DNA from: Collodictyon triciliatum
Lineage: Eukaryota
Assembly: GCA_043381765.1 (NCBI GenBank)
Contig: JBHJMP010000080.1
Coordinates: 1 to 34,955, forward strand
DNA length: 34,955 nucleotides
Direction of reading: 5' to 3'
Shown here: positions 205 through 34,077 of the stretch, piece after piece
How the letters are laid out: each line of letters opens with the position of its first letter
Position numbering within the stretch: the stretch's first letter is position 1
Position numbers and translations under genes: made by a program
The notes under the pieces: generated by a model
Database searches by the model: none
Told to the model about the DNA's origin: nothing
What the model saw: only the letters and a program-made list of their open reading frames with translations

Positions 205-1235
205 GGGTATCTCGTACTTACATTCCTTTAAACCTCCTGTAATTCACCGAGATTTGAAAACAGAGAATCTTTTGGTGAGTCATTTTTTTTTTTAAAAAAA
301 GCCATATATAAGGCTGAGTGTGAAGTGTTGACCAGAAGACTCATAACATTAATGTATTTCTCTTTTTATGGTTTTCATTTTGTATGCTTTCCTTCTTTTA
401 TATTTAAATTGATTGTCAAGGTGGATCGAGATTATCATATTAAGATAGCAGACTTTGGTATATCCCGAGTCAAATCGGTCTCATGCGCCATGACCCAATG
501 CGGAACCCCCAAATATATGGCCCCAGAGGTACCGCACACATTCAAACACGATTTAACTTCATATACGTACTCTGTGCAAAGGAAATGGTTGCCAGTGGAA
601 TGAAACAGATTTCTGCCTTGCATGCACCCTATCGACCATACTTTAAGAATGTCCTCTTACCTAGGTTCTCAAGAACGATAAGTACGATGAGAAAGCAGAC
701 GTGTACAGCTTCGGAATGGTGATGTGGGAGATGCTATCTCGCGAGGTAAGTTATTCATAATATTAATATGTTTAGTTTCAAAAAGGAGTTCTTTCTCATC
801 AAAAACAAGACGTCTGTTTGTTCACCCAAACTACCCTGCTCATAATATTAGGAACCATATGCCGATATGCACCCCGTGGTCGCAGGGATGAAAATTGCCT
901 ACAAAGGTCTGAGGCCCAACATTCCTGACGGGGCCAACCCCGAGTTTGTCAGTCTCATCAAGGTTTGCTGGGAGACTGCTTCAACAAAACGCCCACCCTT
1001 CACTGAGGTACGCGTTCGCTGCTTTCTTTCTCTCTCTACATAAGTCCTGTTATTTAAAATGATATTGGTGCTGTCAACCGTATCCGGTAGATTAATTGGT
1101 ATATGTTTATGTCCCTTCTTCATGTCCTGAATCTATATATCTACTCTATAATGTAAAGTATTCCGTAAAGGTCTCCTACATTTAATATTCTAGATAATCA
1201 CGCGGCTTAGCGCACTGGCCAAAACAATCCGATAG
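205..1235 (+). CDS. Protein kinase, TKL/Raf-like group, C-terminal half (5' end lies outside the window)
   Basis: Exons 205-274, 421-528, 665-745, 852-1007 and 1194-1235 splice in frame: GISYLHSFKPPVIHRDLKTENLL|VDRDYHIKIADFGISR...CGTPKYMAPE|VLKNDKYDEKADVYSFGMVMWEMLSRE|EPY...GLRPNIP...CWETASTKRPPFTE|IITRL...*. HRDLK, DFG, GTxxYMAPE and CW..RP are kinase subdomains VI-XI of TKL type. Confidence 0.93.
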
Positions 1236-4676: not shown

Positions 4677-4934
<258 letters not shown>

Positions 4935-5021
4935 GGACACAAAATAAGCATGTATTGCTAAAATAAAGGTGTGATTCTTTTGCATATGATTTTTTTCTTC
5001 GTTTCGAATGGCATCGCTGTT

Positions 5022-8000
5022 TTAATCGAGAACAGCTTTCTGAGGTAACATAATTGGTGGCCCACCGTAATCAAAAAGCCACACTCTCTGAGAGACTCCA
5101 GCATTCGAGTACGAGCCCACGAAAAAGACAAACACATTCCTGATTGAGACCCCCGGGGAAGTAGGTAGAAGATAGGAAGGGAGGACGGACGGCCGCTGTG
5201 TCCATACTCTCAACTCTATTTTCCAAACCATTTGTTATGATTAGATTGACTCAGCCAGCATTTGAATGGGATCTCTTTTGGCTCAGCGTTAAATGAAGAA
5301 TGTGCTGATAGTTCGTTTAGATTGTCCAAGACACTATTATGTTCTTTAATGTTCTCTTCTTGCAATAAACATCACAAATGTGTTAAGTTAAAAATAAAAT
5401 AATATGATTATGATTTTGGGTATGATTGTACCTTTGGAGAAGCTCCACATATCAGCTAAGGATTGACCTTTATCGTCAACACCTCCAATGACAAAAATAT
5501 TCCCGTTGTAGAGGCCCATTTGATGGCCGCTTCTGGGTGTCTTTATGGGTATGCATGTGTTGCAATTTAGTCGAAAGTATTAGATTGTATTCATAACTGC
5601 ACTATTAATGCGAGCTGAAAAGAACATTTCAGTGGGATGTGGTGTTATCTGAGAACAGCAATATTATCTCACCGGACAATTTTGCAACGAATATGATGTT
5701 ATGTAATTGGAGTGAACGTCCCAACGGAATATTGATTGATAGTTCTCACGACCCGAAACTAGAGAAGATGCCTACGTGTATTTTTATCCTTAAAGAAGCG
5801 ACTTATTTTAATGGATAATTCTAATGTGACCAACTGGCGAGCTTCATTTGAACTTGAGTTGGTATATCAACCCGGTTCTTCTGATATCTCTCGATGCTTA
5901 ACAAGAAGAAAAAAAAAGGAAATATAGGAAATACACTCTCAAAAATTCGTTTTGAAGAACCAAGAAAAAGACAAGATGAAGATAGCTTTACCCATCCACC
6001 AAACATCCAGTACGTCGAACCTTCTTGAACAATTCCGATATTAAAGCGAGAAAAGGGTCTCTCATCACTGGCTAAGTTACCAGCGACAGTGCCGACAGTC
6101 CAAATCAACGTATCTATCCATGTGTGTGTGTGTTTTTTTTTTAATAGAAAGTACGCTAGGTTATGCAAAGTTTTGAATAGATATCATTTTCATAAATTAA
6201 TATATTATCGAAAGGAACACCAGGGGAAGACCATTGGATTATCTAAATTAATATTTAGATGATTTTCTTTCTTTCTGATTTTAAGAACAGACCAGTGTCC
6301 AGATACCACAGATTTGTGTCTATCAGACCCTCATCCTCGGAACCACCCCAGATGTAAACTAGACTTTTGTAAGCAGCAATCGATGCCATGGACCTCGCGG
6401 CAGGCCCAGTAGGCGTATTTGAAGGGGGGACGATCAAAGTCCATTTACGAGTACCTACCATTTAAATTCAAAAGATGAGACTCCTTTGGTAGTAGTTACT
6501 ATTTTCTTGGTGAATATCTGTTTTGTTTTGTTTTGTTTTGTTTTGTTTTGTTTTGTTTTGTTTTGTTTTGTTTTGTTTTGTTTTGTTTTGTTTTGTTTTG
6601 TTTTGTTTTGTTTTGTTAATTTCCTTTGATATTTTCAACTAAATCACTGACTCAGGTTGAAATTCCATAAATCATTCAAGAGTAAGGAGTAGAGATATTC
6701 CGTTTTGCCTCCGAATACAAGGACGGAATTATTGCCATTGGACGCGATTCCAGAATCTCTTCGTTGCATGGGCTGATAGTAAATTGACGAGTCTGCCCAT
6801 GTTCGTAATTCTGAAAAGTGATAAGTTTCATAATTAATTTACATATTATGATACTAGTGGAATTTTTCAAACACAGTTCTTATTGGAAGGGGGGAAGGGT
6901 TGAGAAGTAGCAAGGAAGGGGAAACATATTTGATGAAGGGGGGGACAGGAAAGAGGGGAAAAGTGTCGATAAAAGATACCTGCATCCCAAACCCAACAGT
7001 CTGAACCTATTTGCCCTTCTTTTGGGGCGCCTCCTATGATTATAAGTCTAGTCCCTATGACGGTCGAAGCAGCTCCAAACTTGGTTGTTGGCGCCAAGAT
7101 AGGGACATTTGTGTTCAAATTATCATAAGACTGATAGAAGGTAATCTTCAATTGGGCTATATTGTAAGTTAATTTTGTGTGAACCTCTATAACCGGAGAT
7201 ATGGGCAGACACAAGCTTTGGATTTCAATTTTATTTTGTGATCAACCTATTTTGTCATTTATTTGAAGAGAAAAAATGCATACCCAAATCTATGATGATG
7301 GAATCACGAAGGGCAGTGCGGCCTTTGATGCCACCAAATATATGCAACTCAAACCCGATTACGCCATAATTCATCGAACTACGAGCAAAGTTACACGCCT
7401 TGGCATCTTGGCATGCTGTTACACACTTGCTCGTTTGAATTGTACCTCCAAATTTCCATGTTGAAGATGCTAAGGGGCCAAAGAAATCTTTAGCATCTGA
7501 TTTAAATTTGATGGGAGTACTAAATTTAAATTGGAGGGGAAATGTTAACCTATATCGTATATGTAAATATGTGAGACATCCGTGGTTCCATCCCAGCCTC
7601 CAAACATGAATATTTTGTCATCTAGAATTCCACCGCTGGAATGCGAAAGAGAAGGCGTTTTCCCAACCGTTTCAATCGGAATAAGAAAGTCTCTGACTAT
7701 CGATTTTAATCAGAGCAATTCGCGATTAGTAAGGTATACATCTAAGTTTATTTATACAAAATAACAGTATATTGAATTATACCAGGGTCGAAGGTCCACA
7801 TCGCTGATTGAGGTACTTTATTATGCTAAAGCATTGGGATTTTACTTAACCAATATTGAAGAAGGTTGGCTAAATGTCAACATGTTATATTTTTGAAGAC
7901 TTTCATTAATCTAATTTAAAAAAATTAAAAAATACCGATGCTCCTCCTATCATGTATATCATATCGTTGTAAAGAACACACAATTGCCCAGACATTGAGA

Positions 8001-11000
8001 CGTTATATGATGACCTCAACTTTGTCCAGGTAAAGTTTGTGATATTCATGAAGTAAATATTGTTATCAGATGTATCCGATCCGATTCCCCCAATTAGAAA
8101 GAATCCATCCTTGTACTCCACCAGGCAACCGTCCGCACGCTCTGTTGGTGTATCACCATACGCAAAGTCCCGATACCAGATATTAAGGTCTAATGTATGC
8201 ATTAAAGACTTTAGGCTAATTTCATGTTTTTGAGGACTGGGTTTCCCTGGTGTAAAGTTGAGAAAAGAAAGGTAAATAACCAGAAGAAATTGAAAGCTCA
8301 GAAAAATTGAAAAGCCAAAAACAGAAACAGAGACAGAAACAGAGACAGAAACAGAGACAGAAACAGAAACAGAAACAGAAACAGAAACAGAAACAGAAAC
8401 AGAAACAGAAACAGAAACAGAAACAAAAACAAAAACAAAAACAAAAACAAAAACAAAAACAAAAACAAAAACAAAAACAGAAATAAAAACAAAGACAAAA
8501 ACAAAAACAAAGAACAGCATACAGCATACAGCATACTGAATTCATGGAACGAACCTGAGATATCACTTTGACCACGCATTTCCAATTCTTTTGAGTTATC
8601 TACTTCTAAGGATATGCTTGCTTCTTTCTCGGGTTGTATGCCGTTGACTGGACATGGGCTGTGGGCAAGGTGTGTTTTCTCGCTAATGGCCTTTAGGGGT
8701 GTAGGTGTATCCTGTGCAGTTTTGGAACTCACACTAACTTGTTTGAGCTTCACTTTGAATTTTGACTAAAATTTGATGATGATTGATTGTTAAAGGCAGT
8801 CCAAAGAACTCGTAACGAGTCTATTGTAGGAAAACAAGAAACAAAGGAGAAACTTAAAACTGAAGAAAAAAATACACTAGAGGAAACAGCTGACGGTCGG
8901 GCTGAATCAAAAGAAGGGTTTTCATTCAAATCAATCTTCAAAGTTTGGCTTTGAATGTCAGTAGGTGTATCCACATTTCCGTCCTTTTGTTTTGATTTTT
9001 TCTTGGGACACTCTTCATTTCCTAGAGTAGTGTAATATATATATATATATATGTATATTTATTAAAAAGCTTGAATATTAGTGCCTAGAGAAATTGCAGT
9101 GAGGTTTTTGGCCACAGAGGGGTATCTTATCGGTCACTTTAATTATGCTTTTTTTATACAGAAATTAATAATCTTTAAACTAACCTTCGCCAGGCTCAGA
9201 ATGCGGTCTCTTTGCTGTACCATCTGGTGGGGATATGCCTATATGTGATAATGCAAGAGTAAGTGTGAGCGCCGAAGAGGAGGTACATACTGAAGAGAGG
9301 ACCTTATTTTATTAAAATAATGAACAAGAGTTACCATCAGCAAGGGCTTTTACCGAATGACCAGCTGTAAGTTTATCAGAAGAGATTTCTGCTTTGAGTG
9401 AGGTATTGGTGCGTCGGTCAAGATGAGTTTCAGGTGCAAGTGGGCCACTTATAACTGGCTTTTCAGCGGAATCCTTTGGGTTCATAACACTTTGGTCTGG
9501 TAAAACCTTTGATTTCTTTAAAAGTATTGCCTTTTCACTTTTTATTAGCGGAGAAATAATTTCTTTCTTGTCATTTTCTTGTTTTTCGGGCAAGGAATCA
9601 TATTTTCCCTTCACTTCTGTGTTATAGTGAGTTTGCAATTTATCATTTGTTGTAAGAGAAACATGATTAGGGTCACCGTGGGGGTAGATAATTTGATTCA
9701 CAATATGGGTTTCATCTTTAGGGTAATTGAGGCTTATTTTGCAGGGCTCAGGGCTTAAAGTTTCATTAATGGCACCATCCTGATTCCTTTTCGTGGCAGA
9801 ATTTCTCTTCACAGGCTTTGTACTGATTATTGAAGCTAGATTTTTTGTTCCACTGTCCTGATTTGTTTCTGAGAGGCTATCAATTTTGTGTGCCCCAGCA
9901 TTGTTCACGTATTCCTTCTGTTCAATTGTATGCTCAACCTTATTACCGGGAGTATTCCCTTTAGGAGTATTTCGATGCTTTTTACTTCCTCCGGATTGTG
10001 ATAAGTCCGTTTCATGGTGAGATATTGGTACAGATTTTGATGGTATTACCGATTCGTGTTTTGGAGCTTGATTCAACCCTGGTTTCGTGATCAATGGCGA
10101 TATGTTCGATTTTTTAGATGGTTCATCGCTAGAATTTTGTGAAGTCATCCATAGCCTCGATTCTGGGTCAGAGTTTTGTTTGAAAATTTCTGCGTTGGAT
10201 GTGGTTGACCCTTGACATAAGATGTCAAGAAGTGTCATCTTGATGTCTATGATTTCCTTTGGGGCATTAGAAGCACTTTTTGGCAGAGCTGGTGAATCTG
10301 AATCAGATTTCCGTGCCGGCTTTATGATAAAGCTACCCTTTTTTGATGCCTTTTCATTCTCAGCTGTGCTGAGGTCTACTCCAACGGCATCCTTTTTTTT
10401 ATTTTCTGATAAAGCTTCCGAATCGTTCGAAATCGCCTTTGTTTCTACTTTTTCTCTGGCCTCTTTGGCCCCTTTGGCCTCTTTGGAATCTTTTACATCT
10501 GCTTTGGAGTCCTTCTTCGTATCAGAAGACCTTTTCAGATTATCTTTTCTATTTGGATCATAAACATTTGCTTCGTTTGTTTTCTTTGGTATTAATACTT
10601 CTGATGTTGTTTCAATTCGTTCGATGAAATTAACAGATGATATCAAGACATGTTGATTATCCACCTCTCCGTTGCCTATGGACTGGGAACCTGAATTCAT
10701 ATTTGATGATTTAGATTTTTTTGTGGATATCGATTTTGGCAGCACCGGAGTACTCGGCTCTATCGCCCCTGATTCATCTAGTTCTTTAATTTTAAACTCT
10801 TGAAGTGAGTTTGATACCAATATGGCTATCGAAGGCTCAGTTTTGATAACATTTCTAATGGAGGGCGACTCTTCACTCTCAATATTTGGTTTGGAGAGAA
10901 TAAAATCGGAGTGTGTTGGAGATTTACCCAGCTCATAAATTTTGCTCGATTCAAGAACTCTGGTCGCACTAGAATTGTCAACTTTCGGAAAGGATACTTT

Positions 11001-12965
11001 GGATTCAGTTGGCTCACCTCTCTCGTTCTGAATGGAGGATGAACTGGGGATTTCTGTGTTGAGTTGAGTAATTGAATATGCAAAGAACAAGAATCACGAT
11101 ATTATTTATCGAATCGATAACATTTCTTCCGATGACGATGCCAAACTTGAATAACACAATTCGATAGAGAAAATAATATACCTTTTTTTTTTTTTTTTGT
11201 AAATTGGAACGAAATAAGCATGAAAAAAATGATACACAAGAACAGTAATGCACGGTACCTTTTAGCTCCCTCGATGAAATCAAATTTATCAAGGGGTTTG
11301 TATCTTTTTTTTCTCTGGATGGGGTGTACCCTGGGTCTGAATCCTTTTCTTTTTTCTGAGAAACTTTGCTGAGTTTTGTTTTTGGTGTTTCCATAGGTTC
11401 TTCGATGAGGTCGATATTTTCTTTGGTGTCTTTCTCCTTGTGCTTCGGGTGTGATTCAATTCGTAGAAGTTCCCATACGTTCACTTGTGTGACAGTATCA
11501 TCGCTGTCCCTATAAATAGTAGCGGTATAAATGGAGAAAACTGTTTTCAAAAATGAAATCGTAATGAATTTTGATTAAAACGTAAAAGTAAAGACTATCT
11601 TTAGATATTAAAATTATGAAAAGACAATTGCTGACCAATGGACGGTAATGCTCTCCCAATCTTTTCCATCATTTCTTATTTCTTCAATTCGACCTGAATA
11701 CACGATACCGTCGTCAAATTTCATTCCACAGGAGTCTCCGATCTTTTGTTAGTAGATTGAGTGCGTCAGTTCGATATGAGTGATGAAGGTTTTATAGATT
11801 TAATACATTTTGAGACTTATTGCAGATAATATATATGTTTGATATATCCAGCCAAATACATACTTTCCATTTTTTCGTTAGTGAGTCCTGGTAGATTTTA
11901 TACGGAACAATAAACGGAGTAAAATCAATGCCTTTTTTTGCGATGTAATCTAGCTTCAACTATATAATATCGAAATAGGAAACGAAATGTAAAAGAGAAG
12001 CAATTTGCACATATACTCGTCGGTAATAAGTATAAATATAAAAAAAACTAATGGCTACATCATAGAAAAATACTCCTGACAGCCCCAAACATTATTATAT
12101 ATTGAAATAACAAACTTCGATTTTCTTATCAGGAACAATGAATATGATTGAGACGGAACAATCAGGTAGAAGGTTTGAAGCTAAAAGATTAAATATAGAT
12201 TAATTGATTGCAGCAAACACTTGAGGTTTTTTTTCATTAGAAAAGCTTCGATACGTCAACAATTGATCTAATAATTGAATGATGTAGAATAGAGAACAGG
12301 AAGCAACCCGTGATATTGATAACCGAAACATCAGGAAATGTTCTTAGATTCAAGCGGCAACTCTCTTCTTTCATTTCTTCCCAGAGAACATGCCCAGCTT
12401 TAAAATACACGGCCTTGTCGCCAACCTGTTTTTTTGTTTTTTTGTTTTTTTTTAATGTTATGTATAGCTTTTAGAATTCTTTCAATCTAGACTCGGCTGC
12501 AATACCAAAATCCTTTTCGGTTTTCTAAATACATCAGCATAAGAATATGTAATCCACTTAAAACATATTTTTGATATCAATGTATACTTAGTATTAATTA
12601 TACATTGATATCATTTTCTAAAATAAAAGAAGTTGGGAGAAAACCTAACGGCTCAGCAATCTCTATGAACAATTATAAACTATCCACTAATTTTTTTATT
12701 GAACCTTGGGAATGTAAACGTCGGGTGCGAGTTCGGCAACAACAGTTTCTTCCTGCTTCCCTTTTTTTTTCGAGGCCTCTTTAGCGTTGGGTGCTAGAAT
12801 CATTAAGCTTGAGTCAGGCTGAACTGCACAAAATTAGCTTCACAGCTCAATTGACTTCGATTCAATAAGAAAATATTGTAATAAAAAAAAAGAAGCTTTC
12901 TTTTTTTTTTTTTCAATAACAAGCTCATCTGGTAGGTAGCACTCACTTTTCTTCTTCCGATCCAT
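5022..12965 (-). CDS. Large multi-exon protein: N-terminal PHIP/BRWD cryptic-Tudor (ancillary-like) module, long Ser/Lys/Glu-rich linker, about 10 C-terminal Kelch repeats
   Basis: About 22 GT-AG exons traced with compatible phases from ATG 12965 (MDRKKK|TPNAKE...) to TAA 5022. N-terminus VYIPKVGDKAVYFKAGH...FIVPYKIYQDSLTKKWKIGDSCGMKFDDGIVYSGRI...WESITVHWDSDDTVTQVNVWEL. One large linker exon at ~11053-9330. Kelch motifs FLIGG, YMIGG, FMFGGWDG, HIFGG, IIIGG, LVFGG, YIWGG, WMFGG, PRSGH...FVIGG...MWSF, VWLFD. Confidence 0.85.
6520..6617. repeat. (GTTTT)n intronic microsatellite
   Basis: Perfect pentamer array. Confidence 0.97.
8318..8510. repeat. (ACAGAA/ACAGAG/ACAAAA)n compound hexamer repeat, intronic
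   Basis: Hexamer array with a unit switch; followed by (ACAGCAT)3. Confidence 0.95.
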
Positions 12966-13439
12966 CTGTGTGATTGAGAAAGGTCGACTGCCGAATTGTC
13001 CTTCGTTATAATCATTGTCAGCATTATCTTTAATCGAGATTAATGAACGAAATAAAAAAAAATAAACTGCTCGGAGAGAGAAGGCTTGCAGGTTTAGCAA
13101 CGAAAGGATTCGCCGATCCACATCACTCTGAGCTTCGAGAGATCGAGTGCGCCAAACTTAACTTTGCGGTTGAAGAAAGAATGAAATCTTCCACATTTGT
13201 ATATATTCGGTTGTAAAGGTTTGTGCTTTCTCTCTTTTTTTTTAAGGATGCGCTTCGTTGCGATTACCTCTTATTATCGTTTCCTCATTTTATCCAATTC
13301 AAAACGGTGATTACTTCTGATTAATTGGCACCAAGATTTTGTCATGCTTCTACTTTGTTGTGTTTGTTTTCTTTTTTGTGCGAATGATTTCATAAAATAA
13401 GTTGCCTTTTTTTTATGGTGTCGAAAGCTCGTGTGGCTC

Positions 13440-14675
13440 TCAATGGCAGAAAGAGCGTCCGTTCTTTTGCAGGTATTTTTGATGGTATTCTTCGGCAGGG
13501 TAGAAGACAACCGCAGGCACAATTTGTGTTACAATTGGGCGACTGAATCGCTTCTGCACTTCCTTGACAGACTCTTCAGCTTCCAGCTTTTGTGCTTCTT
13601 CATGGTAAAATATGGCAGATCGGTACTGACTACCAACGTCGGGGCCCTACAGCTCGTGGTTTCAGTGTTTGGTTCTCTCCCTTTTCTTTTATTCGCTGAT
13701 TAGCTGACCCCCGTGAAAGCAGAAAGCAACCAAACATAAAACATAAAACATAAAACATAAAACATAAAACATAAAACATAAAACATAAAACATAAAACAT
13801 AAAACATAAAACATAAAACATAAAACATAAAACATAAAACAAACAAAACAAACCAAACAAACCAAACAAACACAAAAAATAAATGTATAAATGTCTTTGA
13901 TACAATTTTAAGTGCATATGCATGAAATTGTATTACTATATGTTGAATAAGTAAACATGATTTTTATATGGAAGACACGAGAATTACCTGTCGGTTTAGA
14001 GTTGTCGGGTCGTGAGACTTCCAAAATATGTCCAGCAACTGGCGATAGCTATACATGTTATAGGTTCAATACTAGAATACCTTACCATTGATTTGGTGGG
14101 GAAGTTGCACAAGTTAACTTTGCCTGTATTTCGGGTTGACATGATGGGAATATATCCTCAAGATTTAACATATGTCAAGCACTCCCAGATAAGTTATTAC
14201 ATGTGACCGAGAAAATTGCCAAGGATAAAACTAGGATAATAGACAGGAACTGGATGGATGAAAGAAATTGTGGGGCTTTATCTCTACAACTCACACCTGA
14301 CCTGACCCTCATCATAGTCGATAAGAATAGCCTCAGCGTGACCGGTTGTGTCCGAGCAGACTTGCTGTGTAATATAGAAAAGCAAGGCATGAATTAAGAG
14401 AGCAGCAGAAAACACGGCAGTTGCTCATGAGCAGGATGACGCCGACCGTGAGTTCAGCTAGATATCCTCAACCCAAAGACAACCGCCCAGACCCTCTCGC
14501 ATCGGCTGAAACTAAAACTCCTGGAAAGAATGAACACAAAAGAGTGTACCCTGTATGTTGGATTCAGGACAAAGCCGCCAGTGTAGCCGACAAGGGTTTT
14601 CTTGACCCCAGCCAACTTCATGAAGGTGGACTCGACTCCCCAGAAGCAGCCGGCTGCAAAGGTTGCCTGCTTCAT
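13440..14675 (-). CDS. msrA: Peptide methionine-S-sulfoxide reductase MsrA, 153 aa, 4 exons
   Basis: Exons 14675-14550, 14364-14297, 14048-13988 and 13646-13440 give [15 protein letters not shown]...[17 protein letters not shown]...[34 protein letters not shown]...[21 protein letters not shown]. All MsrA signature motifs are present. Confidence 0.97.
13732..13840. repeat. (AAAACAT)n heptamer repeat in msrA intron 3
   Basis: Read directly. Confidence 0.95.
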
Positions 14676-15197
14676 TCCTGAGCTTCCTTGACTTGAAACC
14701 TGAGAGTATGGGTACGAGTGAACTGGGGCACAGGTTCTTGCGACAGACTTCCTGCAGGTTTTTTCTGGAAGCTTCCGCCAGAGAACTGCTGCGTTTTATG
14801 CGATCGCACCAGACATCAATTCCGCACACAGAAAGCAAGGCATCTGGCTCGATTTTCATCGCTTGTTTACTATCTTGTGTAAATATGCATATTTATCTTT
14901 TTTTGATTTATATATACTGATTTTAAATGAGAATGAAGATACAGATAGGTATATGCAGTAATTTCCACATGCATTAAATTAATCTGGAATTGCATTCTCA
15001 AGACGAAAAATGAATCAGTTTTAGTTTGGCTTGATCGAACAGGAAGCAGGCTGACCGCATCCTCCGATGTTTGCTGAAGCCACAAAGACCCAAGGCACAG
15101 TTGCCCACATACTCGAAATCTAGCAACAACCCAAAGCCAGTAATGTTCTACAATTCTCAGATGAGGCACGACCTCTTTTCTGCAGTTTTTTTGGCTC

Positions 15198-15314
15198 CAA
15201 TACAATACAATACAATACAATACAATACAATACAATACAATACAATACAATACAATACAATACAATACAATACAATACAATACAATACAATACAATACAA
15301 TACAATACAATACA
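15198..15314. repeat. (TACAA)n pentamer repeat just upstream of the Nup160 start
   Basis: Perfect array in the divergent msrA/Nup160 intergenic region. Confidence 0.97.
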
Positions 15315-15336
15315 GTAAAATACAAGGTGAAAATCT

Positions 15337-20403
<5,067 letters not shown>

Positions 20404-20510
20404 GTATGTCTATTCCAAAATAAGTTGTGTTGACTAAAAAAAAAATATTGCTTGGTTTGGTGATGTAAAGAGTCACTTTTAGACAATATTATGTTATTCT
20501 TATTACTACC

Positions 20511-20822
20511 TTTACTTTACTTTACTTTACTTTACTTTACTTTACTTTNNNNNNNTTTACTTTACTTTACTTTACTTTACTTTACTTTACTTTACTTNNN
20601 NNNNNNNNNNNNNNNNNNNNTTTACTTTACTTTACTTTACTTTACTTTACTTTATTTTACTTTATTTTATTTTACTTTACTTTACTTTACTTTACTTTAC
20701 TTTACTTTTATTTTCATCTTATTTTACTTTTATTTTACTTTTATTTTCATTTTACTTTACTTTACTTTTATTTTACTTTTACTTTTACTTTTACTTTTAC
20801 TTTTACTTTTACTTTTACTTTT
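20511..20822. repeat. (TTTAC)n/(TTTTAC)n array containing gaps 20549-20555 and 20598-20620
   Basis: Read directly; lies at the junction between the Nup160 5' half and the truncated IFT70. Confidence 0.95.
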
Positions 20823-20899
20823 CTTTAAATTTCTTTACTTTGCTTTGCTTTGCTTTACTTAACTTTATTTTATTTTATTTTATTTTCACTCTGCTGTAG

Positions 20900-23800
20900 C
20901 TATGAAAGTCTGGTCAAACTCTTCCCCGAGGTCGATGAGTATCGCTTGTATCATTCCCAATGTCTGTTCAAGTCTGGCCAGTATGTTGAGGCCACAAAGA
21001 GTGCACACTTGATTGAAAATACACAGTATGCGCAGCGGGTAAGTGGCCCTATATTTTTCAGCAGTTTCACCTAGGCTTTTTTGCATGAGCAACTATTCAT
21101 GTATCCCCTTTTAATATCCAACTCCAGGATTATTTTTTCTTTGGTATTTTTGATTCATATATCTGTTTTCTTTATCTGCTCATCTTTTCACAACATTAAG
21201 CGGGAAATTCTTGGAGCCCAAGGTTCTCACTCTATTCAATTTTATGGCAGGTCACCAAATTGAAAGTCAATATCAGCTATGAGCAAGGGGACATTGAAGG
21301 AGCTCGTTCGTTGCTAGATCAGCTTCCCGACGATGGTGATACTATCGTGAATCTTGGGTGTCTGCTTTTCAAGGTTTCTCTCCAATTTCTATTTGGATTG
21401 ATATTTGTATTCCTTGCTCTTATATCCAAGGAGTCTCACTTCTCCAATAGCATGGGAGATTATTTATTTATTTATTTATTTATTTTTAAAAAACTCTACA
21501 TAACCAGGAGGGACAGTTCGAAGAGGCACGTATGAAGTTTACTGAGGCGATGAATTCGATGGAATATCAACCGCAGCTTGTTTATAATGTGGCGCTGTGC
21601 TACTACAAGCAGAAACAGTACGGTATGGCATTGAAACATGTTGCTGAGGTGATTGAGCGCGGCATTCAAGAGCATCCTGGTATGTTGCAATATTCGTTGT
21701 CTTCCTTATTCGATAAAAGTTCAAATCATAATGTCTATTCTCAAATTTATTAATTTCGTCAATCAATGCGGGGCATTCTATTGACTGCCTATCTTTCAGT
21801 ACTCAGGAAGGCGTTTTGTAACCTTTGTTCTTTAAAAATAATAATTAGAATTGAGCGTTGGAAGCAATGCAGACGGTGTGGAGGCACACAGCGTTGGAAA
21901 TACTGGGGTTCTGTTGGAGACAGCACTTATTGAAGCGTTCAATCTGAAAGCTGCGATCGAGTATCTAATGAAAAATGGTTTGGCATACTACCTGTTCCAC
22001 GATATCGCCGTGATTAAATTGAAAATCAAAGTAACAACATGCGACGTAAGCAATTATGGTGTTTTTAAAAGGAAAATGATTTGTGCACAAACAGAGGAAG
22101 CTGCAAGAGAGGCACTGGCCAATATGCCTCCACGAGCAGAGGAAGAGCTTGACCCTGTCACCCTTCATAACCAAGCGCTTATGAACATGGATTCAGATCC
22201 AACAACGTGAGCCTTTTCCACATTTTCCTATATTTTGTTCATGATGATATAGTGATAAGTATAAAACAAACTTGCTGTCGTAGCTCAGCTAGGTTTTGCT
22301 TGTGTCTTCATTTATGTGAACTCTCATAACCTGTCTTCACTATTACGATTATTTGATATATTACTTTCCACAGCGGTTTCCGGAAGCTCAATTATCTGCT
22401 GCAAAGTGTTCCATGCCCCACTGAGACATTCTCCAACTTGCTTATTCTTTATTGCAAGTTCCAGCACTTTGACCTTGCTGCAGACGTGATGGCTGAAAAC
22501 TCCTCTTTGACTTATGATGCACTCTCTCCTGTACACTTTCTTTTATCTTCAAATTCCTTTTCGTTTTTTTCTATTTTTACAAAAAAAAAAATTCGACGAA
22601 ATATGCATAACTTTCTAGTATATGACTATCCGAGCGTCTTTAAATATTTATACGTAAACACGGTAGGAAATATTTGAGTTTTTGGATGCTACCATCATGT
22701 CTCAAAGTGCACCAGAAGAAGCATATAGAAAATTCGAGGACTTGTCAAAGAAACATGTAATTTGCTGTTAAAATTCATTTGAATGTGGTTATTTGGTTTT
22801 ATTTAGTAAATAGACTAATTCAGGAATTGATTCCATTTCATGATTCTTATTACTCTTTTTAGACCGAAACACTTCGGAAATTGACCAAGCAAGTCCAGGA
22901 TGCTCGACTAGCCCATGATAACGAAGGAGTAAAACGAGCTGTAAAGGATTACGACATGGCCTTAGAAAAGTACACCATAACATCTTGTAATTTATAAAAA
23001 GAGAAAGAAACCACATTCACACACCAACACAGGAGCTATTTGCAACACTATACGATACTTTGCAAGTAAATATATGGCCATGCTAGGTATCTTTTAGACT
23101 AAGAATAATGACCAATACTCTGCACTTGTTCATCATAGATATGTCCCTGTACTAATGTCACAAGCTCGCATTTACTGGGAATTGCAAAATTATGAAATGG
23201 TGGAGAAACTCTTCAGGCAGTCCGCAGAATTTTGCTCCGAGCACGATGTATGGAAGTTGAATGTGGCACATGTCTTCTTTATGCAAGAAGCCAAATACAA
23301 AGAGGCCATTCGATATTATGAACCAATCGTCAAGAAGCAACAAGATGATGTAAGTTGACATACATATATTTTTCTCCCATCCATTTTCCTTTAATTTCTC
23401 TTTAATTCATATGCTGTGTAGTTTGAACAGATGTTAACAGAATCAAATGTAGATTCTCCAAATTCCCGCCATGATTCTGGCCAATCTCTGTGTATCATAT
23501 ATCATGACAAGCCAGAATGAAGAGGTCAAAACACAATATTTTTTTAATCCACGCAAATTGCCATTCATACGAATATATAATTATCTTGCATTTTTTTTAA
23601 AATAAAAATACTCGAAAATAACTCGTTTATTATTTTTTTAGGCCGAAGAATTAATGCGCAGAATAGAGCGTGAAGAAGAGCGGGTTACTTTTAACGATGC
23701 TGAAAAGAAGACTTACCACCTTTGTATTGTGAACCTGGTCATTGGTACTCTATACTGCGCTAAAGTAATTGTTCAACAGGCAGCTTTGTTCATTCGTAAT

Positions 23801-25004: not shown

Positions 25005-26269
25005 TCAGGCACTTTTGTGTGACTCCAGGAAATGGATGATTTCCTCGAGAGACTCGTCAGTCAAATCCTGATTGTGTTGATTCTCCTCTTCATTTCCGTA
25101 ACGCTTTAATGTTGGAATCATCTCTTTGCATTTTTCTATGTCGCTCGGCACGAGTTCGCAGAGCGCAGCCACCTCGAAGCCTTCCAGCTGCTTGTCCGCA
25201 AGGAATCTTGTTGGTGGTTGCGATGGTTAAAATATCGCGGTTTCTTTTCTTTTCTTAATAGTCGCGAATACATGGAGATTGTGAATGATAAAGGAGAGAT
25301 GGCATTACCTGTGGACAGCGTGGAGTTCACTTTCTTCAAACTTCCTCGACTTTGTCGAGTATTCGAGAAACTTTGTGAATCTACGAGGATGGTGGGTTTG
25401 GTTTACATTATGCGATGTGAATGAAAAGCAAAGGATCGAGAATCTCATGTCATGGTAAATATGTAGACTCGGTGTTATATGTTTTATTATGATTATTATT
25501 ATTATGATTGTGATTGTGATTGTGATTGTGATTGTGATAGTGATTGTGATTATAATAAAAACAACAGTGGTTATCATCACGATGAAATGGGCATCGGTGA
25601 ACGAAGGAATGAAAAAAGAATTTACAGCTCATCATTTTCCATCGTCTTCATTCGCTTGTCAAGCTCTTTCTTCCGCTGGCTCAGAAGATTGAAAGCGTGT
25701 GACGAGGAGAGGAATACTGCGTTGTTAAACTCTGCGTATTTGAAATGTATTTAGCCAGTGAGGGAAAAAAAAAAGAACGAGATGAGGCCTGACAGAGAAG
25801 GTTCTCGGTAAGATCGGTTCTGTTGTTGATATACTGAGATATCTGAACGACTCGAAAAGGCCAAAAAGAAAAATGAAAAGAGAAAAGAAAAGAGAAAAGA
25901 AAAGAAAAGAAAAAAAGAAAAAGAAAAAGAAAAAGAAAAGAAAAAGAAAAAGAAAAAGAAATGAAAAAAGAAATGAAAAGGAAAGAAAAAGAAAAAGAAA
26001 AAGAAAAAGAAAAAGAAAAAGAAAAGAAAAAGAAAAAGAAAAAGAAAAAGAAAAAGAAAAGAAAAAGAAAAGGAAATGAAAAGGAAATGAAAAGGAAATG
26101 AAAAAACAAAAAGGAAAAGAAACGACTCGAAAAGGCCTATAAGAAAAAGGGAAAGAAACGAAACGAAAAGGAAAAGGAAAAGAAAAAGAAAAAAGAAAAG
26201 AAAAGGGTCACCTTTCGGAAACTTCAGCGATTGGGCGCACTCGTCATCATATCCTTCTGGAAAGTTCAT
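25005..26269 (-). CDS. RPB4: RNA polymerase II subunit RPB4, 4 exons
   Basis: Exons 26269-26212, 25731-25626, 25380-25309 and 25206-25005 give MNFPEGYDDECAQSLKFPKEFNNAVFLSSSHAFNLLSQRK...LFTKFLEYSTKSRKF...LEGFEVAALCELVPSDIEKCKEMIPTL...DESLEEII...*, matching the RPB4 pattern (LxFPKEF, FExAxLxxLxP, IPSL). Confidence 0.88.
25487..25556. repeat. (GATTGT)n/(ATT)n repeat in RPB4 intron 2
   Basis: Read directly. Confidence 0.9.
25863..26204. repeat. (GAAAA/GAAAAA)n purine tract in RPB4 intron 1; the main part is bracketed by a 17-bp direct repeat
   Basis: AACGACTCGAAAAGGCC occurs at 25846-25862 and 26121-26137. Confidence 0.9.
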
Positions 26270-27476: not shown

Positions 27477-27626
27477 GTGATCTCGCTGTTCTATTGCTTC
27501 TATTTTATTACCTTTCGTGTCTGTTTACACTGCAGTGTTTTGATGTGCTAGTGGTATTTTGCCAACTTTTTTTTTATTGTGGCTGCTTGTTGTACTTGTT
27601 TGTAAAGAATTGGTTAGCAACAATGC

Positions 27627-27916
27627 CAAAAACAAAACAAAACAAAACAAAACAAAACAAAACAAAACAAAACAAAACAAAACAAAACAAAACAAAACAA
27701 AACAAAACAAAACAANNNNNNNNNNNNNNNNNNNNNNNNNNNNNNNNNNNNNNNNNNNNNNNNNNNNNNNNNNNNNNNNNNNNNNNNNNNNNNNNNNNNN
27801 NNNNNNNNNNNNNNNTTTACTTTACTTTACTTTACTTTACTTTACTTTACTTTACTTTACTTTACTTTACTTTACTTTACTTTACTTTACTTTACTTTAC
27901 TTTACTTTACTTTACT
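27627..27916. repeat. (AAAAC)n, then a 100-N gap (27716-27815), then (TTTAC)n
   Basis: Different repeats either side of an exactly 100-N gap. Confidence 0.95.
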
Positions 27917-28054
27917 GTACTTTACTGTACTGTTGTTTTTATGTTTGTTCAATCCGATTGTTTCTCCCCTTTATTTTTCTCTCATGATGTCGTCATTTTT
28001 GTTGAAAAAGAAGTACGAAATGCATACAGACAACGAACAACTAACAATAATTAG

Positions 28055-33462: not shown

Positions 33463-34077
33463 ATGGAGAAGACAAATACCAAAGGACGATCCAAGATGTG
33501 GACCAAGCAAGAAGATCACATCCTCGTTGCAACTGTGGGCCTTCTTCCCAAGTGCTGCTGGAAGCGAGTGTCACAGGTATAGGGCACAGAAAACAACCAC
33601 CTAACTCTCGCGACTGATAATAAACACCAGATAATCCATCATGTCAATGCGTCATTGCAGGCCCTTGGTGGACGACGCACGGCTGAACAATGCTGCCAGC
33701 GCTGGCACCGAGTTCTGAGTCCCAAGGTGCGAGAAGGCGTGTGGACAGCCGAAGAAGATGCGACTCTCATGACCGCAGTAGAGCGCTTGGGACTGCGTGC
33801 TTGGCGCTCTGTGGCAGAATGTCTCGCGCCTCGCTCCGAACTGCAGTGCCGTTTGCGCCACACGCAGCTTTCACGGCGAGCAAATCCTGTTTTCCACAAC
33901 CTCCCTTTCCCACTGAATTCTCACAGTCTTGCGTTGGGCACACCGTCCGCGTCCCATCGTAGCAGTGGCTACATCCCGCCCGAGCCCAAGCTTGAGTCTC
34001 CAACGCCGGCTCAAAGACACGGACTCTCGCACGTCGCATCCGATCCGCGAATGGCCATCTCTTCCCTTCTCAACTAA
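33463..34077 (+). CDS. Two-repeat (R2R3-like) Myb DNA-binding transcription factor, 2 exons
   Basis: Exons 33463-33576 and 33661-34077: WTKQEDHILV...WKRVSQ|ALGGRRTAEQCCQRWHRVLSPKVREGVWTAEEDATLMTAVERLG..AWRSVAECLAPRSELQCRLRH. An extra upstream exon is possible because the ATG follows TAG with CTAAT nearby. Confidence 0.9.

Follow-up and report, generated by a model that had tools for sequence, protein, structure and literature searches.

A minus-strand chain of exon-sized open reading frames (ORFs) extends from position 12965 to position 5216 of a 34,955-nt stretch of Collodictyon triciliatum DNA (assembly GCA_043381765.1, contig JBHJMP010000080.1, positions 1 to 34,955), the whole of which is referred to below as the window. 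Splicing in silico, with exon borders set from the sequence and from script-located positions, yields a 22-exon model whose introns are all bordered by GT..AG and whose 4,533 nt specify 1,510 aa closed by a single stop, reproducing the in-phase product of approximately 1,500 aa claimed in an earlier note on this DNA. The product is predicted to begin with a compact relative of the cryptic Tudor (cTudor) module of PHIP, to continue through a long linker and to reach an array of Kelch repeats across a putative intron. The individual features are given below, together with the joints observed in X1 and X2, two contig sets from two related organisms (most pieces being 95 to 99% alike, and the runs being presumed to be RNA).

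12947 to 13000, minus strand: exon 1, comprising a 35-nt 5′ untranslated region (13000 to 12966) and, from the ATG, 12965 to 12947 (MDRKKK plus 1 nt); joint 12793/12947
12705 to 12793, minus strand: exon 2, a basic stretch resembling a nuclear localization signal (NLS; ..KEASKKKGKQEE..), with the beginning of motif 1 (DVYIPK); joint 12793/12947
12308 to 12425, minus strand: exon 3 (VGDKAVYFKAGH...), containing the first strand region of DD, the first Tudor-like half; joint 12180/12308
12116 to 12180, minus strand: exon 3b (ASNLLPDCSVSIIFIVPDKKIE), DD half; joints 11959/12116 and 12180/12308 in X1 and X2
11864 to 11959, minus strand: exon 4 (LKLDYIAKKGIDFTPFIVPYKIYQDSLTKKWK), in which DD ends and AD (the second Tudor-like half) begins; joint 11742/11864 in X1
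11636 to 11742, minus strand: exon 5 (IGDSCGMKFDDGIVYSGRIEEIRNDGKDWESITVHW), core of the AD barrel; joint 11508/11635
11259 to 11509, minus strand: exon 6, final AD strand (DSDDTVTQVNVWELL) followed by the start of the charged linker; joint 11053/11259 in a 1,220-nt X2 contig
9335 to 11053, minus strand: exon 7, 1,719 nt open, S/K/E/P-rich disordered linker without a Pfam domain; joint 9237/9334
9185 to 9238, minus strand: exon 8, linker; 5′ side placed by joint 9237/9334, 3′ end at 9185 predicted
8876 to 9021, minus strand: exon 9, linker with the NLS-like patch PKKKSKQK; joint 8765/8876 in X2, 5′ end at 9021 predicted
8555 to 8765, minus strand: exon 10, linker, 70 stop-free codons; 3′ end at 8555 (donor gttcgt) predicted
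8247 to 8554, minus strand: putative intron 10, 308 nt, mostly hexanucleotide microsatellite, predicted from sequence only
5216 to 8246, minus strand: Kelch part, 11 exons, 552 aa, nine hhhhGG blades
8246 to 7936, 7825 to 7783, 7696 to 7550, 7469 to 7284, 7156 to 6980 and 6810 to 6652, minus strand: Kelch exons 1 to 6
6454 to 6293, 6113 to 5992, 5771 to 5673, 5540 to 5432 and 5358 to 5216 (stop included), minus strand: Kelch exons 7 to 11

From the 5′ end of the gene as far as 8765, nine introns are bridged by spliced X1 or X2 contigs, with CT..AC ends on the plus strand, as follows.

12946 to 12794, 12704 to 12426, 12307 to 12181, 12115 to 11960 and 11863 to 11743, minus-strand gene: bridged introns 1 to 5
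11635 to 11510, 11258 to 11054, 9334 to 9239 and 8875 to 8766, minus-strand gene: bridged introns 6 to 9

Eight of these nine introns correspond to direct contig joints, the remaining one (12704 to 12426) being represented by adjacent pieces of a single X1 contig (12702 to 12793 and 12308 to 12422). A single X2 contig of 1,220 nt leads from exon 1 into exon 7 and, together with the other spliced contigs, places the N-terminal exons on one transcript with the long exon of the linker; apart from the predicted connection between 9185 and 9021, the gene structure is regarded as shown up to 8555. Of the two intervals across which the earlier note had sought confirmation of a single transcript, that at 11260 to 11050 contains an intron (11258 to 11054) which is spliced in a contig; for that at 9330 to 8250, the introns at 9334 to 9239 and 8875 to 8766 are bridged, and no X1 or X2 contig spans 9185 to 9021 or 8555 to 8246, both of these connections being predicted from reading frame and splice consensus. 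The donor sites of the gene are degenerate, with GT being followed by almost anything. The interval from 7136 to 8495, which contains the first Kelch exons and part of the putative intron, has zero cover in every run and is uninformative either way, and the remaining Kelch region is represented by low-depth pieces only, one of which is unspliced (X2, 6746 to 6894).

The contigs also amended the exon structure of the N-terminal region. The third exon, previously thought to end at approximately 12330, ends at 12308 (contig joint 12180/12308), and an additional exon of 65 nt at 12180 to 12116, located between 12308 and 11959, had been overlooked, so that the module possesses one more beta-rich piece than was apparent at first reading. 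The N-terminal residues quoted at that time (YIPKVGDKAVYFKAGH ... IGDSCGMKFDDGIVYSGRI ... ITVHWDSDDTVTQVNVWEL) are present in the sequence. Three departures from uniform splicing were observed. The introns at 8766 to 8875 and 9239 to 9334 are unspliced in X1 contigs and spliced in X2 contigs; if the former were retained, the frame would end at a TGA at 8752 to 8750, giving a shorter isoform without exon 10. In addition, an X2 contig joins 11742 to 11870 with seven other letters between them (ends CT..CA), the X1 joint being canonical at 11742/11864, which reflects either a species difference at the end of exon 4 or an alignment effect.

At the 5′ end of the gene, X1 and X2 contigs carry an identical run of 23 non-genomic letters upstream of 13002, directly behind an AG at 13002 to 13001. 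This 23-mer is absent from the entire window, even when up to three mismatches are allowed, and represents a candidate spliced leader; mRNAs of the organism seem to receive a common leader at their 5′ ends, and the sharing of this leader suggests trans-splicing and tightly packed genes. The leader motif matched no paper in a literature search, and among the papers listed in a search on Diphylleia, Collodictyon, Mantamonas and Rigifila none contained the term spliced leader. Because the mRNA begins only 35 nt before the ATG, there is no room for an upstream WD40 part, and the placement of the module at the very N-terminus, as had been claimed for this protein, is upheld.

Residues ~30 to 180 of the predicted protein are considered to be a genuine, if compact, member of the family that comprises the PHIP cryptic Tudor and the DD-AD region of plant auxin response factors (ARFs). 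For comparison, the window motif YIPxxGDxxxYFxxGH was back-translated to a degenerate DNA pattern and used to search metagenomes, which returned 22 loci, in eight of which the remainder of the module was found in the same open frame. Six of the metagenome ORFs were run against Pfam, with the following outcome.

L006: WD40 repeats and BRWD_AD (PF25313), 88.6 bits (cut-off 40)
L008: WD40 and ARF_AD (PF06507), 44 bits (cut-off 27)
L003: a bromodomain and nothing else
L014, L001 and L004: no Pfam match

As these loci had been picked by the first strand, the independent test is provided by the rest of the module only, that is, the AD half. Profiles of this half were scored against the spliced window segment, with shuffles of that same segment serving as the control.

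Profile L003+L006+L008+L014: window 32.9 bits; best of 20,000 shuffles 12.9 bits
Profile L006+L008 (Pfam-verified): window 18.6 bits, first of 5,001; best of 5,000 shuffles 11.9 bits
L003 alone: window 22.4 bits; best of 5,000 shuffles 12.3 bits
L006 alone: window 15.8 bits; best of 5,000 shuffles 9.6 bits
L008 alone: window 10.5 bits; best of 5,000 shuffles 12.1 bits

Alignment of the whole window module with the four-sequence alignment by hhalign gave a probability of 97.5% and an E value of 5e-12 across 144 colinear columns, a figure which takes in the motif used for locus selection. These scores demonstrate the homology of the N-terminal region to the PHIP/BRWD module that the earlier note had proposed. 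Within the AD barrel, the profile alignment retains the four conserved aromatic positions of the profile, occupied by one Y and then three W.

A number of results weigh against this assignment and would be expected if the likeness to PHIP and ARFs were a chance motif match in some other small beta-rich domain. Single N-terminal exons had no Pfam match at E ≤ 5, including to BRWD_AD and ARF_AD, the 72-position model spanning three exons; exons 3 and 5, when searched against PDB sequences, returned only a designer PPR protein and LSm6 (E ~1) and no PHIP chain; the profile of L008 alone failed to lift the window segment above its shuffles; and the comparison loci had been selected via the motif itself. 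However, the AD part, which lies outside the selecting motif, scored 20 bits over the best of 20,000 shuffles, the window segment ranked first even where the profile was restricted to the two Pfam-verified loci, the alignment is colinear throughout, and the module exons are nearly invariant across three organisms while the linker drifts. A chance match is, consequently, considered extremely improbable. An ESM Atlas search with exon 5 gave no usable match, and a protein word-index search with the long exon and with its first 137 aa gave none.

When compared with X1 and X2, the module exons display a single difference, which is synonymous, while the other coding sequence, made up of the N-terminal tail and the linker, displays 11 synonymous and 25 non-synonymous differences. 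The near-invariance of the module exons among the three organisms, set beside a drifting linker, indicates that the module is the constrained part of the protein. Two of the metagenome ORFs harbor the module without WD40 repeats: that of L014 (56 to 2281, minus strand) encodes 742 aa with no Pfam domain of any kind, and that of L003 (575 to 3607, plus strand) possesses an insert of ~230 residues inside the DD and one bromodomain. Loss of flanking domains is, therefore, not unique to the window gene, and further uncultured eukaryotes also possess the module in settings other than the two architectures described.

The absence of WD40 repeats and of a bromodomain, claimed previously, held in the 18 exon and ORF translations scanned with Pfam, in which B3 and PB1 domains were likewise not detected. 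No bromodomain was found behind the module in exons 6, 7, 9 and 10 or in the Kelch exons, and exons 7, 9 and 10 gave no match to any Pfam domain. The linker amounts to 772 residues (S 14%, K 13%, E 9%, P 7%) and is disordered and fast-evolving. Basic patches occur at residues 3 to 6, 15 to 17, 467 to 469 and 846 to 848; judged by these NLS-like patches and by the module, the protein is probably nuclear.

The Kelch repeats which had been recognized by eye in the downstream exons were confirmed on single exons by Pfam matches above curated cut-offs, for example to Kelch_1 (24.2 and 29.2 bits against a cut-off of 20.1) and to Kelch_4 (23.9 and 27.9 bits against one of 21.6). Kelch families were matched in five of six Kelch-region ORFs in a first Pfam scan and in one of five further Kelch-region exons in a second. 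Nine hhhhGG blade signatures are contained within ~480 aa, and the ORF stops 47 residues past the last blade, with no kinase match in the exons. Nine blades exceeds the usual six or seven, and one large propeller or two partial ones are conceivable. A HMMER search with the first Kelch exon against 1.84 billion representatives returned 642 matches with E ≤ 0.001, of which none reached E ≤ 1e-30; no close orthologue is on record. The whole spliced Kelch part was then scored against the 150 proteins returned of these 642 matches, and the best group consisted of proteins of 1,588 to 2,518 aa, colinear with residues 20 to 505 of the Kelch part, the top stretch reaching 250.6 bits at 28 to 31% identity; the Kelch unit is thereby established as homologous to that of these proteins. 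All seven of the proteins looked up, as well as P0040, belong to Diphylleia rotans (EukProt transcriptome), and Pfam analysis of five of the Diphylleia relatives identified at least two Kelch units in each and tandem protein kinase domains in three. Other searches with Kelch exons were less informative: with the first Kelch exon, the protein word-index search gave no match and a metagenome scan gave 81 pattern matches, none of which was confirmed, while the ESM Atlas returned generic Kelch clusters for a Kelch exon, including RAG2 fragments, which represents general Kelch likeness only.

The link from 8555 to 8246 decides whether module and Kelch array belong to one protein or to two adjacent genes, two readings which we regard as about evenly balanced. 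No stop lies within exon 10, whose coding frame has to pass 8555 to reach one. Behind a strong pyrimidine tract, the first AG is that at 8248 to 8247, which keeps phase with the 8554 donor, and three further observations speak for a single gene: the 308-nt gap from 8554 to 8247 is intron-like; a separate mRNA starting from the acceptor at 8246 would carry an upstream ATG (8225) with an ORF of four codons; and the related Kelch unit is an internal module of multidomain proteins in Diphylleia. We, therefore, propose as the best explanation, with an equal chance of its being right or wrong, a nuclear protein in which a compact cTudor, a disordered linker and a nine-blade Kelch unit are joined. 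The fuller proposition, namely, that a single 1,510-aa cTudor-Kelch protein constitutes a third DD-AD class besides those of PHIP and ARF, in a deep-branching flagellate lineage which has Kelch relatives only in Diphylleia (CRuMs) and seemingly also employs a spliced leader, is one to which we accord slightly less than even confidence.

Several observations weigh against this proposal. The 8555/8246 junction is bridged by no contig; the degenerate donors imply that an in-phase path would arise by chance approximately 1 time in 3; an AD-like part was found in none of 164 Kelch relatives (best score 5.6 bits); and in the available portion of the text of the survey of this scaffold (PMC11685440) Kelch is mentioned nowhere and only the ARF and PHIP types are listed. 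Furthermore, alternative acceptors exist at 8189, which is in frame, and at 8215, 31 nt downstream of 8246. Use of the latter would lead directly to Ala-TAA, and eight bases past this stop lies an ATG (8202), 4 to 8 residues after whose Met the Diphylleia Kelch-unit homology starts, as would be expected of a self-standing Kelch protein. Such features would be explained by a pair of neighboring, equally oriented genes, gene A encoding a cTudor with a disordered tail (~959 aa) and ending via 8555 to 8215 or another terminal exon, and gene B encoding a Kelch protein of ~537 aa from ATG 8202, the in-phase join being a coincidence of degenerate splice signals. The apparent common 5′ leader makes closely packed separate cistrons possible, the identical 23-nt non-genomic leader in X1 and X2 and the position of an MsrA gene only ~440 nt upstream on the same strand being in keeping with such an arrangement, and gene B would then possibly be translated from its own leader-capped mRNA derived from a shared precursor. 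However, exon 10 contains no stop; the tract upstream of 8215 is purine-rich and poor, that of 8246 being the strong one; an mRNA with a stop at 8213 to 8211 followed by ten introns would be unusual; and a joint between leader and Kelch exon was seen in no contig, an absence which is not proof. The existence of two genes is, on balance, a serious possibility which we hold somewhat tentatively.

One X1 contig stops exactly at 8555 and is followed there by the 3′ end of the SMART template-switch adaptor, oriented as for a plus-strand molecule starting at this position, without continuation into 8554 to 8521 or a further exon. A terminus at the predicted donor may be cited for two genes, and it could equally represent an antisense start, mispriming of the adaptor (on a spliced mRNA beginning CC...), strand invasion or a splicing intermediate; it clearly favors neither one gene nor two. 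The same contig bears on the notion that exon 10 is the last exon and is left unspliced at 8554, with the Kelch gene being separate. Read-through from exon 10 would translate the hexamer microsatellite as poly-Leu/Phe until a TGA at 8300 to 8298, the hexamer units keeping the frame open through the repeat, and X1 does include unspliced contigs for two other introns (8766 to 8875 and 9239 to 9334). Nevertheless, a hydrophobic tail of ~70 residues is implausible on a charged nuclear protein and the X1 contig does not enter 8554 to 8521, which renders this arrangement very unlikely.

If module and Kelch array do form one protein, the following mode of action may be envisaged. A pared-down cTudor (residues ~30 to 180), without WD40 propeller, bromodomains or the B3 insert of ARFs, would form the N-terminus, and the frame most likely runs through the 308-nt microsatellite intron (8554 to 8247) into the ~480-aa Kelch unit. 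By analogy with the PHIP module and H3K4 methylation, the AD barrel, with the four family aromatic positions kept, may bind a methylated lysine of a histone tail, and the Kelch propeller at the far end of the flexible linker might hold a partner protein at chromatin, so that the protein would act as a chromatin adaptor.

Elsewhere in the window, which has a G+C content of ~36%, short introns, numerous microsatellites and 907 N distributed over five runs, the following features were recognized.

13440 to 14795, minus strand: MsrA gene (PMSR, PF01625), at least two exons, a separate gene upstream of the cTudor gene
232 to 603, plus strand: protein kinase exon (Pkinase, 31.8 bits)
33583 to 34077, plus strand: Myb-type DNA-binding protein, in a GC-richer stretch
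21200 to 22677, plus strand: ORFs which we take to resemble an IFT70/TTC30-type TPR protein; no Pfam match
8309 to 8520, 6512 to 6628, 6108 to 6150, 4815 to 4950, 15100 to 15330, 20480 to 20900, 25500 to 26200 and 27600 to 27950: examples of microsatellites

The Kelch array, the cTudor gene and the MsrA gene share one orientation and lie close together. Microsatellites with units of five or six nucleotides (among them GTTTTT/GTTTCT and CAAAA) are unusually plentiful, mostly in introns and intergenic regions, and an Rfam scan of the window gave no match.

The DD-AD (cryptic Tudor) scaffold has so far been described in two settings, namely, the PHIP/BRWD chromatin readers and the plant ARFs, as far as the consulted part of PMC11685440 extends. 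A free-standing N-terminal copy represents an independent case of this scaffold having been cut loose and reused, with or without Kelch repeats, and, at ~150 aa, it would be a handy minimal form for studies of binding and structure. Should the fusion to the Kelch unit be true, a histone-reading scaffold would have been recombined independently of the event that gave rise to ARFs, resulting in a simple and testable design of reader and docking platform in a poorly studied eukaryotic lineage; should it be false, the locus would merely add one more minimal protein to an established domain family, adjoining an ordinary lineage-specific Kelch gene.

In PHIP, the CryptoTudor is the part that binds methylated H3K4, and the substitution W1081A abolishes this binding, according to the section of PMC5710144 available. 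The window module resembles that of PHIP, BRWD1 and BRWD3 (BRWD_AD, PF25313) in its P-x-x-GD-x-x-x-YF-x-x-GH strand, its beta-rich DD and its AD barrel, which follow in the same order, in the conserved aromatics of the AD (the Y of ..VYSG.. and the W of each of ..DWES.., ..VHW.. and ..VWEL..) and in the absence of a B3 insert, and it is colinear with the PHIP-type modules from metagenomes. It differs from PHIP/BRWD in that no WD40 propeller precedes it and no bromodomain follows it, its place being N-terminal and its continuation a disordered linker of considerable length, with Kelch repeats possibly coming next. Compared with the modules of the four metagenome loci, it is shorter (~150 aa versus 176 to 353 aa), and it lacks the conserved P-W that follows motif 1; where L006 has a WW pair, the window has V-Y.

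Plant ARFs share with PHIP the double Tudor-like DD-AD fold, the ARF version of which is derived from the PHIP cTudor, ARFs being thought to have arisen through the capture of a PHIP fragment; moreover, a phmmer survey of UniProt reference proteomes, from which single-domain hits were dropped, recovered two architecture groups, ARF-type and PHIP-type (PMC11685440, in the part consulted). The scaffold of the ARF DD-AD (ARF_AD, PF06507; PDB 6sdg) is homologous to the window module, the ARF structure 6sdg was the only match of the L006 module in a PDB sequence set that seems to include no PHIP cTudor chain, and four ARF-like contigs which look like plant ARF N-termini (L004, L009, L010 and L013) have in common with the window the eight residues YIPKVGDK. 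The window module departs from ARFs in having only ~55 residues between motif 1 and AD, where ARFs hold their B3 domain, so that none can fit there (nor was a B3 match obtained), and in lacking PB1; moreover, to judge from the neighboring genes and the Kelch relatives, the organism is probably not a streptophyte. The literature examined, as far as the accessible parts of those sources go, describes no minimal N-terminal copy of the module and, in particular, none that is joined to Kelch repeats.

Regarding the Kelch unit, the Kelch/TKL kinases of Diphylleia rotans (P0008, P0082, P0113, P0117, P0038, P0096 and P0141) contain a repeated Kelch unit of ~480 aa that is colinear with that of the window, which has one such unit and no kinase, while the Diphylleia proteins have no Tudor-like part; at ~30% identity, they are paralogue-level relatives rather than orthologues. 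HCF-1 is a Kelch protein and a COMPASS partner, yet the nearest relatives found for the window Kelch unit are the Diphylleia Kelch-kinases, and even in these Kelch_HCF of Pfam stays below its cut-off. RAG2 combines a Kelch propeller with a PHD finger that reads H3K4me3; if the fusion is real, the window protein would resemble RAG2 in the pairing of a Kelch propeller with a methyl-lysine reader, and would differ from it in the type of that reader, Tudor-like rather than a PHD finger, and in the order of its domains.

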